Of a stretch of 64,000 bases of DNA, positions 13,460 to 21,513 are shown piece after piece. The stretch is taken from positions 4,821 through 68,820 of the forward strand of contig JAURFW010000001.1 in NCBI GenBank assembly GCA_030834125.1. The letters run 5' to 3'. Below the pieces are notes generated by a model. The model was not told the origin of the DNA, did not search any database, and saw only the letters and a list, made by a program, of their open reading frames with translations. The DNA comes from Bacteroidota bacterium. Lineage in GTDB: Bacteria; Bacteroidota; Bacteroidia; NS11-12g; UBA955. The number at the start of each line of letters is the position of its first letter. Within the stretch, counting starts at the first letter, position 1. Position numbers and translations under genes: made by a program.

Positions 13460-14995
13460 GTGATTGCTTCTCATTGGGTATATAGAATTTGGGCAGAACA
13501 ATATTTATCGCCATTAATTGATACAAAATTTGATCTTGGAATAAGTTTTAGTTCGGATTTATTAAGCCTGAAATTTAGTTCAAATGATTTATTACATTTT
13601 ATTGATTGTAAGTGGGTTGATGGTGAGCTATTGCTTTCTAATGGAAATGAAATCAAGGAGTCGTCTAAAAATAAAAAGAATGCGCTCGTTCAATTAAAAG
13701 CATTAAATGGAGAGATTGTAAAATCTGTTTCACTAATGTTCTTAGATCGCTTGGTTAGGATCGACTTCTCCAATAACTTTAAACTTGTTTTTAAAGGCTT
13801 CGGAAGATTTTCAAACGTTATTTTATTAGGGTCTAATAATTCAGTGGTTCAAGTTTTTCGTTTAAATTTTAAGGAAGATTGGAATTTTATCCTTGACGAA
13901 AATGATGAGCGGTGGTGGGAATTAAATAAACCAATTAATCCTACTGCTTTGAAGGAATATCTTATTAAATTTAAAAATATTATATCAAAAGATGAAGTTT
14001 TCTGGGATTGCTTTGATTTTAATAAATTCTTTGAAAGTTACGCCAATTTGGATATGAAATTTCAATATTCAAATGGCAAAATAGAACTAGTTGAATATGG
14101 TATAGAAATATCAAAAAAATCAGTTTTTGAAAATATCGATAAGATTATAAAACAATTAGTTAAGGCATATTACTTCAATAGTAAATATAGATTATTAAAA
14201 ACTGATTTAATAAAGAAGTTAACAAAGTTAAATTCGTACAACACAGGTCTTCAACAACAAAGGTCTATTTTGCAAGAAAGAAGAAGTTATAAAGAAATTG
14301 GAGATCTTGTAATGAGCAATGCTCACAGTATTAAAAAAGGGGTTTCAGAAGCATTGATAACTGATTATTTTACAGGTAATCGAATAAGGATAAAGCTAAA
14401 TAAAGAACTTACTGCTTCTCAGAATGCTGAGAAGTTTTACAAAAAGGCGAAAAATGAGTCTTTAGAATTGGCTGCAATTGAAGAGAAATTGAACAATACG
14501 GCGGAATTAATCTCTAAAACGAATAATGATCTAGAAGAACTAAGTAAAGTTACAACACTTACAGATTTTCAAAATCTGAAATTCTCTTTAAAAGAGAAAG
14601 CTGCGAGTCCTGGAAAACAAAACCAGTCTACAGCTAGGAAATATTCATGGAATGGAATTGAATTTTGGGTTGGTAAAAATGCAAAGAGTAATGATTGGAT
14701 CCTCAGAAATGCTACAAAAAATGATATTTGGATGCATGCATCTGGTGTTGCGGGTTCTCATGGATTAATTAGAAAAATCAATTTATCACAATTGAAAAAT
14801 AAAGACCTAGAAATAGCGGCAAGCATTACAGCATTCTATTCGAAAGGTAAAAATCAAGCGTTGCAAACAGTAATGTATGCAGAACGAAAGTTTGTATCAA
14901 AGATAAAAGGCGGTAATGCAGGACAGGTTAAGGTTCAAAAATGGGAGACCATAGATGTTGAACCGAAGGATTTTGTAAAATTTATTCAATCGTAA
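13460..14995 (+). CDS. NFACT-family RNA-binding protein (RqcH/FbpA-like, DUF814)
   Basis: The C-terminal GIEFWVGKNAKSNDWILRNATKNDIWMHASGVAGSHGLIRK is the NFACT-R/DUF814 signature, preceded by a coiled-coil middle and an NFACT-N-like N-terminus. The GTG start is assumed. Confidence 0.7.
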   Translation: MIASHWVYRIWAEQYLSPLIDTKFDLGISFSSDLLSLKFSSNDLLHFIDCKWVDGELLLSNGNEIKESSKNKKNALVQLKALNGEIVKSVSLMFLDRLVRIDFSNNFKLVFKGFGRFSNVILLGSNNSVVQVFRLNFKEDWNFILDENDERWWELNKPINPTALKEYLIKFKNIISKDEVFWDCFDFNKFFESYANLDMKFQYSNGKIELVEYGIEISKKSVFENIDKIIKQLVKAYYFNSKYRLLKTDLIKKLTKLNSYNTGLQQQRSILQERRSYKEIGDLVMSNAHSIKKGVSEALITDYFTGNRIRIKLNKELTASQNAEKFYKKAKNESLELAAIEEKLNNTAELISKTNNDLEELSKVTTLTDFQNLKFSLKEKAASPGKQNQSTARKYSWNGIEFWVGKNAKSNDWILRNATKNDIWMHASGVAGSHGLIRKINLSQLKNKDLEIAASITAFYSKGKNQALQTVMYAERKFVSKIKGGNAGQVKVQKWETIDVEPKDFVKFIQS

Positions 14996-17333: not shown

Positions 17334-17663
17334 ATGAAAAACAAACAGTTTTTTGAGGACTCGGTAAATCAACTATCGGATTTAACGAAAGCCATAGGAC
17401 ATCCAGCTAGGATCCAAGTATTGTTATATTTAAAAGAGAACGGCTCAAGTACCTGTCAAAATTTGGTAGATGCACTACCATATTCTCAGAGTACTGTTTC
17501 TGGTCATCTTCAAAAACTGAAAGATGCAGGATTGATAGTTATGAAATCAAAACAAACTTCTTCAATTTATTCAATCAAAAAAGATGTATTAGTTGATTTG
17601 AATGCCCTTTTCCAGTCAGTATTTGGATTAACTCCCGAAAGAAATCAACTTTCCCTATTTTAA
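17334..17663 (+). CDS. ArsR/SmtB-family HTH transcriptional regulator
   Basis: LTKAIGHPARIQVLLYL...STCQNLVDALPYSQSTVSGHLQKLKDAGLI is a winged-helix ArsR pattern. No CxC metal site is present. Confidence 0.8.
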   Translation: MKNKQFFEDSVNQLSDLTKAIGHPARIQVLLYLKENGSSTCQNLVDALPYSQSTVSGHLQKLKDAGLIVMKSKQTSSIYSIKKDVLVDLNALFQSVFGLTPERNQLSLF

Positions 17664-18868
17664 CGACGATAATCGTCAATTATCATCCCTGTAAGCAGTT
17701 TGGGTTCTATAAAAGTTGATTTTGGTGGCATTATATTCTTTTCATCCGCAATTTTTCTAATCTCTGTCATTGTATTTGGATGAAATAGAAATGCAATTTC
17801 GCCTTTGCCTTCAATTAAAGTTTGCTGAATATCTTTAACGGGATCATCTCCCCTAACAAATGAAATTCGATCATCACTGGAACTGTCATAAATCCCAAGT
17901 GCAGGTTTAAGAATTTCATCTTCAAATAAAGAGATGTCTAATGATTTAAGAGCACTTGCATCCTCACTTGGAACTTTCAAATCAAGTAAGATTCTACGTT
18001 CCTTTGTTATGCATAATACACTTCTAAGCGGAATTTGTGAATAATCTACTATGTTATTAGATTCAACGTAATCAAAGTTTTGGCTATCTAAGTAGTTGAA
18101 TACCAACTCTGGATTGACATGTTTTAAAACTCTATAAAATGGCTTTATTAACACCTGAGACTCATCCATAACTAAGGCCATTATCCCTTGATTTGTATTT
18201 TTACCAAATTCCGATTCAATATATTTAGCCACGCTAGAAATTCTATGGTGCCCATCAGCAATATATAATGAGTCAATACCTTCAAAAGCATTCTGTATTA
18301 AGTCATTTGTGTTATTAATTATCCATAATTGGTGTGTGTTAAAGTACTCGTCGGTTACGCTAAGATATGGATCTGAAATTAGTATTTCTTCAGAGAATTC
18401 TTGAAGTTCTGATGGAAGATTTTGTGTAAGTAACACAGGTTCAGCCATTGATTGTAATACTTTTACATGTTTTATAAGTCTATCTTCTTTAGCTTTAATA
18501 GTATTTTCGTGTTTTTTTATTTTACCGTTAAAATAATCATTGATGTCAACTCCCAAAATCCATCCACAAAGATCAACCCCAGAATGATGTTGCTGACGAT
18601 ATAAATAAAATGCCTCAGATTTTGACTCGATTAAATTCGAGTCAATTAGATTATTTAAAAAATCTAAACTACAACGGTAAAATGCATCAGTACCCTGTTC
18701 TATTTCATGATGTACAAACTGAGGTTTTACAACACGTATATAATTATTTTCAAGCTTTAATGCTTTTGCTTGTAATACATTACTCGGAATTTTACCCGAA
18801 CCAAGTGTTGCAATTTCATTGACAGTTTCTGGTTTTGGTAATAAGGTTTTTAGAGGATAAACCCACAT
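17660..18868 (-). CDS. DUF1015 family protein (function unknown)
   Basis: 402 aa with the conserved SLYIADGHHR motif. It starts 2 nt after the serA stop. Confidence 0.7.
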   Translation of the reverse strand: MWVYPLKTLLPKPETVNEIATLGSGKIPSNVLQAKALKLENNYIRVVKPQFVHHEIEQGTDAFYRCSLDFLNNLIDSNLIESKSEAFYLYRQQHHSGVDLCGWILGVDINDYFNGKIKKHENTIKAKEDRLIKHVKVLQSMAEPVLLTQNLPSELQEFSEEILISDPYLSVTDEYFNTHQLWIINNTNDLIQNAFEGIDSLYIADGHHRISSVAKYIESEFGKNTNQGIMALVMDESQVLIKPFYRVLKHVNPELVFNYLDSQNFDYVESNNIVDYSQIPLRSVLCITKERRILLDLKVPSEDASALKSLDISLFEDEILKPALGIYDSSSDDRISFVRGDDPVKDIQQTLIEGKGEIAFLFHPNTMTEIRKIADEKNIMPPKSTFIEPKLLTGMIIDDYRR

Positions 18869-18870
18869 TT

Positions 18871-19818
18871 TTAATTCAAGTGTTGAATAATTCTTTCGGC
18901 AAGCTCAATTCCTACACGTTCTTGTGCTTCTTTAGTACTAGCACCAATATGAGCAGAAAGCGATGCATTTTGCAATGAAAGAATCGAATCATTTATAGGC
19001 GGTTCAGATTCAAAAACATCTACTCCAGTAAAAGCAACTTTACCTGTATTTACAGCATTGTTTAGTGCAGATTCATTAATCACCCCACCTCTAGCACAGT
19101 TAATAATAATAACACCATCTTTCATTTTTGAAATCTCACTATCTCCTATAACTTCAGTACTTCCTGGTGTGTGAACACTGATTATATCACTACTAGTTAA
19201 GATTGTATCAAGGTCTTCTCCCTTCAAGTTTACGCTAAAGTTATTAGTTTGGTAATGTTTATTAAATGTAACGGTTAAGTCAAATGATCGGCCTTTGTAA
19301 TCATAAACTAACACTTTCATTCCAAGGCCAATTGCCATTTTTGCAACTTCTTGCCCTATCCTTCCAAAACCAATAATTCCCAAAGTTTTATTAGCTAATT
19401 CAAACCCTTTTGATGCCGTTTTCTTTAAAATTTTAAACTCTTCCTTGCCGAATTCAGGCATTCTTCTATTTGAAAGGTGTAGCATTCTGGCTACCGAAAA
19501 CAAATGAGCAAAAACTAATTCCGCAACCGATTTGGACGATGCATTTGGTGTATTTACAACGGGTATATTATACTCACCTGCAGCTTTTAGGTCAATATTA
19601 TCTAGTCCTACGCCAGCACGTGCAATTAATTTTAAATTGCTTTTTTCAATGATATCACGTTTTACCTTTGTTGCACTCCTTACTATAAGCACATCGAATT
19701 GATCAATTTTAACTAATAACTCATCTTGTGGGATGTTTTCTGTAGTTACCTCAAAACCTGCTTTTTCAAGCAAATCTTTTCCAATTTTATCTATTCCGTC
19801 GTTTGCTAAAATTTTCAT
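18871..19818 (-). CDS. serA: D-3-phosphoglycerate dehydrogenase (short form, D-2-hydroxyacid dehydrogenase family)
   Basis: NAD-binding GIIGFGRIGQEVA, a catalytic region containing ARGG, and its position between serC and DUF1015. Confidence 0.8.
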   Translation of the reverse strand: MKILANDGIDKIGKDLLEKAGFEVTTENIPQDELLVKIDQFDVLIVRSATKVKRDIIEKSNLKLIARAGVGLDNIDLKAAGEYNIPVVNTPNASSKSVAELVFAHLFSVARMLHLSNRRMPEFGKEEFKILKKTASKGFELANKTLGIIGFGRIGQEVAKMAIGLGMKVLVYDYKGRSFDLTVTFNKHYQTNNFSVNLKGEDLDTILTSSDIISVHTPGSTEVIGDSEISKMKDGVIIINCARGGVINESALNNAVNTGKVAFTGVDVFESEPPINDSILSLQNASLSAHIGASTKEAQERVGIELAERIIQHLN

Positions 19819-19819
19819 T

Positions 19820-20890
19820 TTATAAACCCTTAATAATATCCGCTAATACCTGCACACTTTCAGTTGGCATTGCATTGTAAATGGATGCTCTGTATCCACC
19901 CACACTTCTATGTCCTTTAATTCCGCTAATTCCCGCTTCTTTGCATAAATTATTGAATTTTTCTTCCAATGCTTGATGTTCCTCCTTAAATACAAAACAA
20001 ACGTTCATTTTACTTCTCGAATTTACTTCTGCCGTTCCAATAAAATAAGGACTCTCATCTATAGCTGAATACAGAATATTAGCCTTTTCTTCATTTATTT
20101 TTTGGATAGCTTCAACTCCCCCTAAATCCTTCAACCATTTTAAATTATGCATTGAAGCTAATATGGCAAATACAGGCGGTGTGTTATACATACTTCCAGC
20201 CTCCGCATGAGTATCATACTTGAGCATTGTAGGAATATGTCTGTGAGCTGTTTTATTATAAAGTTCTTTATTAATTATAACCAAAGTAACCCCTGCTGGT
20301 CCCATATTCTTTTGAGCTCCAGCATAAATTAGGTCAAATTTGCTAACATCTACTGGTCTCGAGAAAATATCTGAACTCATATCACAAATTAATGGAACTG
20401 AAGAATAGGGAAATCCCTGCATTTGAGTACCAAAAATTGTATTGTTGCTTGTGCAGTGGAAATAATCTGCAGAAGAATCAATATCATAACCAGTTGGAAT
20501 ATAATTGAAATTTGAATGAGCACTTGAAGCGCACTCAATAACTTCTCCGTATGCTTTTGCTTCTGTTATAGCTTTCTTCGACCAAGTACCAGTGTTTAGA
20601 TAGACTGCTTTTCCAGATAGGAAATTCATGGGTATTTGAAAGAATTGTGTTGAGGCTCCACCTTGAAGAAAAAGAATATCATGTGTATCCGGAATATTGA
20701 GTAATGTTTTAACCAGATCACATGCATCATCCATTACTTTTTGAAATTCTTTTCCTCTGTGTGAAACTTCAATTGCACTTAATCCGGTACCAGAGAAATT
20801 TTGTAAATCGGCAATACTCTGTTCAATTGCATAAGTAGATAATATTGAAGGACCCGCCGAGAAATTATGAATCTTTTTAATGCTCTCCAT
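19820..20890 (-). CDS. serC: 3-phosphoserine aminotransferase
   Basis: MESIKKIHNFSAGPSIL matches the SerC N-terminus, and YAGAQKNMGPAGVT carries the PLP lysine. The start is set at ATG 20890 rather than the TTG at 20902. Confidence 0.88.
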   Translation of the reverse strand: MESIKKIHNFSAGPSILSTYAIEQSIADLQNFSGTGLSAIEVSHRGKEFQKVMDDACDLVKTLLNIPDTHDILFLQGGASTQFFQIPMNFLSGKAVYLNTGTWSKKAITEAKAYGEVIECASSAHSNFNYIPTGYDIDSSADYFHCTSNNTIFGTQMQGFPYSSVPLICDMSSDIFSRPVDVSKFDLIYAGAQKNMGPAGVTLVIINKELYNKTAHRHIPTMLKYDTHAEAGSMYNTPPVFAILASMHNLKWLKDLGGVEAIQKINEEKANILYSAIDESPYFIGTAEVNSRSKMNVCFVFKEEHQALEEKFNNLCKEAGISGIKGHRSVGGYRASIYNAMPTESVQVLADIIKGL

Positions 20891-20934
20891 ATAGAACTGC
20901 AATTTTACATGTATAATTGCGTGTAAACAAGAAA

Positions 20935-21513
20935 ATGAAAGGGAAACTAGCGATATTTAGTGTTATCTTAATCTTTATTGCTACGAATAAGTCGCATGCT
21001 CAATATGAAGGTTTAGATAGTAACCGCAGGCAAAGCCCTGAATATAAGTATGATTACTCTCAAGAGCCAGGTACGTCAGAATTTGATTATGAAAAAATCA
21101 AATATAACGGAACTGACTTTTCTGCATTTGGAAGTGGAACTGTTTATTCGCTTGAGTTGATTCCTTTCACAGGCATTACATTGAAGGATAGGTTCTACTT
21201 TGCCGCTGGCGGGGTTTTGTCATTGTATTCCGATAATCTTAGGATGATCTATTCTGGAAATTACGGTGTAACAAGTATGATGAGAATTCCTATTTCAAAT
21301 TTTTTCCTACATTTAGAATATAGAGCTCAAAATGCTCTCACAGATTTAGATTATAGAGTTAGAAACTGGTATACAACTCCAATTATTGGTGGAGGATTTG
21401 TTTATGAATCTAAACTAAATACTATTGTACTAGTTGGATTGGCACTAAATCCAGATTACGGTAAAACAAACCCTCTTGGAGGTATAGTATATCGATTCGG
21501 AATTCGTTTTTAA
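20935..21513 (+). CDS. Small putative outer-membrane beta-barrel protein
   Basis: Signal peptide ending ...NKSHAQ, an alternating amphipathic pattern, and a terminal ...YRFGIRF (C-terminal Phe). The start is set at ATG 20935. Confidence 0.45.
   Translation: MKGKLAIFSVILIFIATNKSHAQYEGLDSNRRQSPEYKYDYSQEPGTSEFDYEKIKYNGTDFSAFGSGTVYSLELIPFTGITLKDRFYFAAGGVLSLYSDNLRMIYSGNYGVTSMMRIPISNFFLHLEYRAQNALTDLDYRVRNWYTTPIIGGGFVYESKLNTIVLVGLALNPDYGKTNPLGGIVYRFGIRF

Follow-up and report, generated by a model that had tools for sequence, protein, structure and literature searches.

The serC-serA-DUF1015 Operon

The window analyzed here, a stretch of 64,000 nucleotides (nt) from the genome of a Bacteroidota bacterium, carries three consecutive genes on its minus strand: serC, serA and a gene for a protein of the DUF1015 family (Pfam PF06245). 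Both the listing of open reading frames (ORFs) and the sequence gave gaps of 1 nt and 2 nt between them, as had been noted in an earlier annotation of the window (the original prediction), which took the DUF1015 protein for a possible non-canonical phosphoserine phosphatase or a regulator. In our analysis, the DUF1015 protein likely acts at the phosphoserine/serine step and replaces the phosphoserine phosphatase SerB in this genome. The operon comprises the following features (aa, amino acids):

17660–18868, minus strand: DUF1015 (SerBK-type) gene, 402 aa; assigned from PF06245, an AlphaFold2 model and Foldseek
18869–18870, minus strand: 2-nt spacer between the serA stop codon (TAA) and the DUF1015 ATG; junction TAA-AA-ATG, the same in relative L122
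18871–19818, minus strand: serA, short-form D-3-phosphoglycerate dehydrogenase (PGDH) lacking the ACT domain, 315 aa
19819, minus strand: 1-nt spacer between the serC stop codon (TAA) and the serA ATG; junction TAA-A-ATG, the same in L122
19820–20890, minus strand: serC, phosphoserine transaminase, 356 aa from the ATG at 20890
20891–20934, no strand: divergent intergenic region of 44 nt separating the starts of serC and a 192-aa ORF, from the sequence and the L122 gene calls

The open frame of serC reaches a TTG at 20902 (19820–20902). The ATG at 20890 is the likely start, since in L122, a relative with 90% identity, the called gene has 356 aa. SerC matched NF003764 with 456 bits (cut-off 253) as well as Pfam Aminotran_5, and SerA matched Pfam 2-Hacid_dh and 2-Hacid_dh_C, with the PGDH model TIGR01327 as its top NCBIfam match (299 bits, model positions 1–301 of 525). 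That score is below the TIGR01327 cut-off because the ACT part is absent and the match is restricted to the first 301 model positions; the PGDH assignment is based on family membership together with gene context. The identities of serC and serA in the original prediction thus stood, both families being securely assigned by profile matches.

From their 1-nt and 2-nt spacing, the three genes are probably co-transcribed and co-translated, and the 44-nt intergenic region is presumed to be the site of the operon promoter. A promoter scan returned fewer sigma-70-type sites than were found in shuffled sequences, and the Bacteroidota-type TTTG...TAnnTTTG pattern did not occur near the operon. A terminator scan found no terminator-like site on the minus strand within the operon.

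Conservation of the Operon

The original prediction had described the DUF1015 gene as fixed in third position, and this held throughout the related regions compared. The block nuoM-nuoN, small ORF, serC-serA-DUF1015, ArsR-type regulator, lpxL and M42 peptidase was preserved in L086–L088, with DUF1015 proteins 47%, 47% and 38% identical to that of the window, in L122, where the 1-nt and 2-nt gaps were also unchanged, and in 10 of the 10 same-genus regions fetched (DUF1015 46–49% identical). In four of four same-order regions, serC, serA and DUF1015 were contiguous, and the DUF1015 proteins were only 28–30% identical to the window's, making them no closer to it than the mainstream members of the family described below. 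Preservation of the gene order in all of these genomes argues that the adjacency is not due to chance. Within the genus, SerC was 64–71% identical, SerA 68–74%, the M42 peptidase 74–82%, LpxL 41–51% and NuoN 51–58%. DUF1015 thus evolves faster than its operon partners, yet within the range of its neighborhood.

The linkage extended well beyond this lineage. Among 80 DUF1015 loci from several phyla, taken from one-genome-per-species contigs, 39 had serA and/or serC within 6 kb, invariably on the same strand, a count that is a lower bound since several of the contigs were short. Both genes were present at 30 of the linked loci, serA alone at eight and serC alone at one. The order was serC-serA-DUF1015 in Bacteroidota and Bacillota, and DUF1015-serA-serC in Acidobacteriota and at one Planctomycetota locus. 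The existence of two distinct arrangements points to a functional rather than a historical linkage.

The DUF1015 Protein

The window protein matched PF06245 with 142.3 bits (cut-off 25.8) over residues 4–267. Of the 273 DUF1015-positive genomes in the phylum sample (301 Bacteroidota genomes), none scored lower, and most exceeded 300 bits. No NCBIfam model matched the protein, including the serB model. Three motifs were recognized: HEN (residues 120–122), YIADGHHR (202–209), which contains the ADGHHR sequence of the original prediction at 204–209, and MPPKSTFIEPK (380–390). The family-wide patterns YIADGHHR and MP[PA]KST[FW][IV]E retrieved 597 relatives, and both occur in the window protein, at residues 202–209 and 380–388, respectively.

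Comparison of the window clade (20 proteins) with 80 mainstream DUF1015 proteins yielded 29 positions where one and the same residue reaches 90% conservation or more in each of the two clades: P11, Y90, G102, H120, E121, P144, H179, W182, Y202–R209, R246, L310, F337, G340, D375, M380, P381, K383, T385, E388, P389, K390 and G394. Proteins from Clostridium (L013, L059, L081) and from Bacteroides/Prevotella (L014, L044), used as proxies for the experimentally supported members, were 27–29% identical to the window protein; a Bacteroides and a Clostridium protein were 50% identical to each other. Judged from these proxies, the window protein falls short of the ~40% identity to a supported member that GapMind uses for a high-confidence call.

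The ratio of nonsynonymous to synonymous substitution rates (dN/dS) of the DUF1015 gene was 0.059 against the 90% identical relative L122 and 0.060 against a 78% identical one, compared to 0.046 for serC (against L122) and 0.069 for serA. The DUF1015 gene is under purifying selection and is not decaying. We read it as a fast-evolving orthologue and not as a paralogue, since, within a single order, mainstream-type and divergent-type proteins are encoded at one and the same operon position.

Two other unusual types of DUF1015 protein were encountered. The low-scoring DUF1015 genes of family f7 (genomes G067, G071, G143 and G207; loci L092–L095) were considered as members of the window clade and rejected, as they represent a third, N-terminally shorter type: these proteins have 369–378 aa and low Pfam scores, lack about the first 75 residues, and are 25–32% identical to the window protein. 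None of the five f7 genomes had serB. At a Pedobacter locus (L010), the match begins at query residue 38 and the protein sits on a very long branch, and the gene still follows serC-serA.

Predicted Fold and Structural Relatives

A model of the DUF1015 protein was generated with AlphaFold2 from a 40-sequence alignment, with a mean predicted local distance difference test score (pLDDT) of 93.6 and a predicted template modeling score (pTM) of 0.90. When the model was compared to the PDB with Foldseek, ranks 1–9 were all free serine kinases of the SerK/SbnI type, with E-values from 1.6e-9 to 6.7e-7, while the next match had an E-value above 1e-3. VIA-align gave Z-scores of 11.3–12.5 for the nine kinases, over 208–228 of ~240 target residues, dropping to Z ~5 for sulfiredoxins and ParB proteins. 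Based on the ranking of the nine kinases by both programs, the modeled DUF1015 core (residues ~86–402) is assigned the SerK/SbnI two-domain fold, which is built on a ParB/sulfiredoxin (Srx) nucleotide-binding domain. Relative to that core, the model has an N-terminal extension of ~85 aa as well as insertions.

The best matches were SerK from Thermococcus kodakarensis (TK0378; PDB 5x0b, 5x0e, 5x0g, 5x0j, 5x0k) and its P. furiosus homologue (PDB 1vk1) (Foldseek E-values of 1.6e-9 to 3.5e-9, VIA-align Z 11.4–12.5); entry 5x0e contains phosphoserine and AMP. SerK depends on ADP and phosphorylates free serine specifically (PMC5120207); its substrate and product, free serine and phosphoserine, are the compounds of the step considered here. 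It is an archaeal enzyme, a physiological kinase for cysteine synthesis and serine assimilation and not a replacement for SerB. The ATP-dependent SbnI of staphyloferrin B biosynthesis (PDB 5uje, 5ujd, 6nr6) has the same fold (Z 11.3–12.4), but is only 11–14% identical to the window protein and occurs in a different gene context; it makes phosphoserine for a siderophore precursor and also acts as a regulator. Elsewhere, the ParB/Srx fold binds and hydrolyzes ATP or CTP and serves as a nucleoside triphosphate (NTP)-dependent switch (PMC12704722). SerB, a haloacid dehalogenase (HAD)-type protein (TIGR00338) that supplies the same pathway step, is unrelated to the DUF1015 protein in both fold and motifs.

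Unlike the structures, the sequences of DUF1015 and SerK show no significant similarity, and the DUF1015 protein is ~160 aa longer. A search of all PDB sequences with the family profile returned SerK entries alone, at non-significant E-values of 0.3–1.2. In these profile alignments, IADGHHR pairs with IVDGHHR of SerK (residues 67–73), placing window residues D205–R209 on SerK D69–R73, and PPKST pairs with SPKTT (219–223), so that the DGHHR and PK(S/T)T motifs are common to both proteins. These pairings involve the two best-conserved motifs of DUF1015, and DGHHR is the motif with which the ParB/Srx domain binds nucleotide or phosphate. ParBc_2 gave a weak match over the DGHHR motif (E = 0.16). 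A phmmer search of PDB sequences with the single DUF1015 protein produced nothing but a chance match to PilA (E = 1.8), and an ESM Atlas feature search with PF06245 excluded produced no usable match. From the aligned ranges (model residue 94 to SerK residue 7), we infer that E121 of the HEN motif, which is conserved in both DUF1015 clades, would lie near SerK E30, the catalytic glutamate that is mutated in the E30A and E30Q structures of SerK.

Distribution of serB and DUF1015

The host assembly comprises 2.30 Mb in 94 contigs and is 98% complete. When it was searched with the serB model TIGR00338, the best match reached 20.9 bits and lay within a 757-aa ATPase-like ORF, and a search with PF12710 gave no match. 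The genome has four HAD ORFs, namely the 757-aa ATPase-like ORF, a beta-phosphoglucomutase, a YjjG-type nucleotidase and a 182-aa ORF, none of which is SerB-like. Its one His_Phos_1 protein scored 59.6 bits on PspA (cut-off 350), and its one protein of the inositol monophosphatase (IMPase) family scored 200 bits on the SuhB-type model and 163 bits on HisN, both below cut-off. The original prediction had found no phosphoserine phosphatase gene within the window; the TIGR00338, PF12710, HAD and PspA searches extend this to the genome. DUF1015 is single-copy, glyA is present, and a search for Fe-S L-serine dehydratase found none in the genome.

The same pattern was seen among close relatives. In a set of 41 genomes, made up of 24 from the same genus, 16 from the same order and the host itself, serB was above cut-off in none, while DUF1015 was found in 37 and was missing from none of the 30 genomes with a completeness of at least 90%. 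Of the 301 genomes in the phylum sample, 273 (~91%) had DUF1015 and 88 (~29%) had serB above cut-off, suggesting that DUF1015 is commoner than SerB in Bacteroidota. The joint counts below come from mutually related genomes and are given without a statistical test:

DUF1015 present (n = 273): serB present in 79, absent from 194
DUF1015 absent (n = 28): serB present in 9, absent from 19

Several families had DUF1015 only: f29 (DUF1015 in 48/49, serB in 0/49), f25 (14/14 and 0/14), f30 (16/16 and 1/16), f23 and f19. Family f22 carried both genes (DUF1015 in 63/63, serB in 61/63), as does B. thetaiotaomicron. In genus g4 the two were complementary, with serB in all seven genomes lacking DUF1015 and no serB in two of the four that have it. 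A fair summary is that most DUF1015-bearing Bacteroidota lack SerB, and that co-occurrence is common in some families.

ORFs of 627–657 aa with a weak SerB-like HAD domain (50–77 bits, below the serB cut-off) were observed in many Bacteroidota (genomes G111, G291, G295, G055, G215, G091, G191, G155, G247, G199, G235, G175, G135 and G257). Two of these genomes, G199 and G257, have neither DUF1015 nor canonical serB. These ORFs may encode phosphoserine phosphatases in a fused or variant form, or HAD fusions with no relation to that enzyme.

Comparison with SerBK

The idea that a DUF1015 protein supplies the missing step is not new: it was proposed in 2018, and genetic evidence followed in 2024–2026. 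Hofmann et al. (2018, PMC6110889) proposed that C. difficile CDIF630erm_01132, whose gene shares an operon with serA and serC, dephosphorylates phosphoserine. Price et al. (bioRxiv 10.1101/2024.10.14.618325; PLoS Genet, 12 Nov 2026, PMC13759103) named the family SerBK and reported that DUF1015 homologues frequently adjoin serA and serC, that E. coli serB::kan grows on minimal medium when it carries C. botulinum CBO1128, that of 50 genomes in which a close homologue is linked to serA, 47 lack serB, and that B. thetaiotaomicron BT1151 is required for growth with serine as nitrogen source. They also noted that the AlphaFold model of mainstream SerBK resembles the serine kinase SbnI. C. difficile extracts convert 3-phosphoglycerate to serine without a recognizable SerB (PMC6110889, PMC13759103). 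A single Sediminibacterium protein is given as a predicted “diverged SerBK” by Price et al., and neither SerBK nor DUF1015 nor A0A521P7R6 appears in the supplements to the GapMind preprint. The statement in the original prediction that DUF1015 has no assigned function is accordingly outdated as far as the genetics of SerBK is concerned, while the biochemistry is indeed unassigned.

The window protein shares with CBO1128, CDIF630erm_01132 and BT1151 the PF06245 domain, a length of ~400 aa, the location downstream of serA in a serC-serA-DUF1015 operon, the YIADGHHR and MPPKSTFIEPK motifs, a serB-less genome and the remote structural link to serine kinases. Unlike mainstream SerBK, it is only ~27–29% identical to the Clostridium and Bacteroides proxies, sits on a long branch and differs at four replaced positions. 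What is new at this locus is the divergent SerBK clade, its conserved operon context, the serB-less lineage, the PDB matches and the shared set of residues.

Proposed Function and Alternatives

According to our preferred reading, the pathway would run from 3-phosphoglycerate to 3-phosphohydroxypyruvate (SerA), to phosphoserine (SerC) and to serine, with the last step carried out by the DUF1015 protein, whose divergent clade is inferred to have retained SerBK function. With serine in plentiful supply, all three enzymes might operate in reverse, passing serine into glycolysis via phosphoserine. The missing-step part of the original prediction is supported by the rescue by CBO1128 and by the absence of serB from this genome and its relatives. 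The word “phosphatase”, on the other hand, may describe the wrong chemistry, since the fold matches free serine kinases and no known phosphatase. The reaction could be hydrolysis of phosphoserine, or transfer of the phosphoryl group between phosphoserine and a nucleotide. In the biosynthetic direction, net hydrolysis, possibly nucleotide-assisted, seems to us more plausible, because on thermodynamic grounds a kinase simply running in reverse would be hard put to draw the unfavorable SerA step forward. The kinase direction could serve serine assimilation, a role that would suit this genome because no Fe-S serine dehydratase was found in it.

A number of observations weigh against this assignment. 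The window protein is only 24–30% identical (median 27%) to the 80 mainstream DUF1015 proteins, and a maximum-likelihood tree built from 100 proteins set the window clade apart from the mainstream by a fully supported branch of ~3.7 substitutions per site; the tree came from a quick search and has long branches, so that trust is limited to the split itself. With so low an identity and so long a branch, function is being extrapolated over a large distance. Four residues conserved in the mainstream (R10, N245, W292 and R392) are replaced in the window clade. The anticorrelation between serB and DUF1015 that had been expected from the original prediction was not apparent in the raw counts from the 301 genomes, as serB was present in 29% of the DUF1015-positive and 32% of the DUF1015-negative genomes; the distribution is structured by lineage instead. 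The IMPase-family protein or other phosphatases of the genome are candidates for the phosphoserine phosphatase. The complementation result is open to a further objection: over-expression of promiscuous phosphatases can rescue serB mutants of E. coli, which makes plasmid complementation a sensitive but poorly specific assay and no proof of a dedicated activity. Finally, a kinase fold makes a net flux from phosphoserine to serine problematic. The equilibrium constant of the reverse serine-kinase reaction is ~4e-4, on account of which Price et al. (PMC13759103) called the chemistry of SerBK unresolved.

A separate observation from the phylum sample points the same way. Nineteen of the 301 genomes had neither DUF1015 nor serB, and nearly all of these are reported as complete (e.g., G077, G093, G117, G157, G188, G205 and G209); they must have another phosphoserine phosphatase or be serine auxotrophs.

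We considered the possibility that DUF1015 is a serine kinase for assimilation alone, working with SerC and SerA in reverse, and that another phosphatase makes serine. In favor of this, the protein resembles free serine kinases in both fold and motifs, the kinase direction is thermodynamically easy, and B. thetaiotaomicron, despite having serB, needs BT1151 to grow with serine as nitrogen source. The co-occurrence of the two genes in 79 sampled genomes fits such a role, as do the IMPase-family, His_Phos_1 and HAD phosphatases of unproven specificity in the host genome and the lack of an Fe-S L-serine dehydratase, which would make an additional entry route for serine useful. However, a purely assimilatory kinase is hard to reconcile with the rescue of E. 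coli serB by CBO1128, with the absence of serB above cut-off from 194 of 273 DUF1015-positive Bacteroidota, from 41 of 41 relatives and from 47 of the 50 genomes of Price et al., or with the serine made from 3-phosphoglycerate by C. difficile extracts, and we regard it as quite unlikely. A more speculative idea, which we also hold to be unlikely, is that SerBK constitutes a new class of phosphoserine-cleaving enzyme on the ParB/Srx fold, distinct from a simple reverse kinase. In a shuttle version, phosphoserine and a nucleoside diphosphate would yield an NTP, which would then be hydrolyzed on the enzyme as ParB hydrolyzes CTP; such a sequence would be irreversible overall and could draw the unfavorable SerA step forward. 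In another version, the phosphate would be handed to a low-energy acceptor. In either case, the 29 shared residues would represent the minimal active site, and the replaced R10 and R392 a changed co-substrate.

Two further explanations would take the DUF1015 protein away from the phosphoserine/serine step. Since SerA is a short form without the ACT domain and the tight coupling to serA is conserved, DUF1015 could be a nucleotide-binding regulatory partner of SerA or SerC that takes the place of the serine feedback domain, using the ParB/Srx fold as the NTP-dependent switch that it is in other proteins (PMC12704722). However, a member of the family can make up for a strictly catalytic loss in a foreign host, which makes the regulator role suggested in the original prediction unlikely, the nearest structural relatives are enzymes (Z ~12, compared to ~5 for ParB/Srx proteins), and the many invariant charged residues shared with the SerK motifs fit an active site; a regulatory partner thus has hardly any probability in our view. 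Alternatively, the divergent clade might have drifted to another substrate, such as a different phospho-amino acid or a hydroxy acid, leaving the operon position as a historical relic. The long branch, the ~27% identity to the mainstream and the loss of the conserved arginines R10 and R392 are what such a drift would produce, but the operon position is strictly held across genus and order, no serB was found in the genus, the gene is under purifying selection of the same strength as its partners serA and serC, and the 29 core residues are kept, so that we consider drift very improbable.

If DUF1015 replaces SerB, the SerBK solution extends to a fast-evolving Bacteroidota lineage whose protein lies below the identity thresholds for confident annotation. 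Price et al. counted the missing serB among the gaps most often left in reconstructions of bacterial amino acid biosynthesis, and metabolic models should not label the genomes of this lineage serine auxotrophs. The residues common to two distant clades, together with the PDB matches to SerK/SbnI, provide a short list for biochemistry.

Neighboring Genes

The genes on either side of the operon are both on the opposite strand:

17334–17663, plus strand: ArsR/SmtB-type regulator, 109 aa, converging on the DUF1015 gene
20935–21513, plus strand: 192-aa ORF with a signal-peptide-like N-terminus (MKGKLAIFSVILIFIATNKSHA), between nuoN and serC

The stop codons of the ArsR and DUF1015 genes overlap by 4 nt (17660–17663), having the palindrome TTAA in common, and this overlap leaves no space for a terminator between the two genes. 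The regulator adjoins DUF1015 in L086–L088 and in the 10 same-genus regions (61–68% identical) and was not found in the four same-order regions. The 4-nt overlap itself is preserved in L122, L123 and L088.

Upstream of serC and divergent from it lie the 192-aa ORF, nuoN and nuoM, in that order. The ORF, which starts 44 nt from the serC start, had no Pfam or NCBIfam match and is kept within the genus at 32–46% identity. A gene for an NFACT/RqcH-like protein of the fibronectin-binding protein A type is located at 13460–14995 on the plus strand and is preserved in the same neighborhood in relatives.

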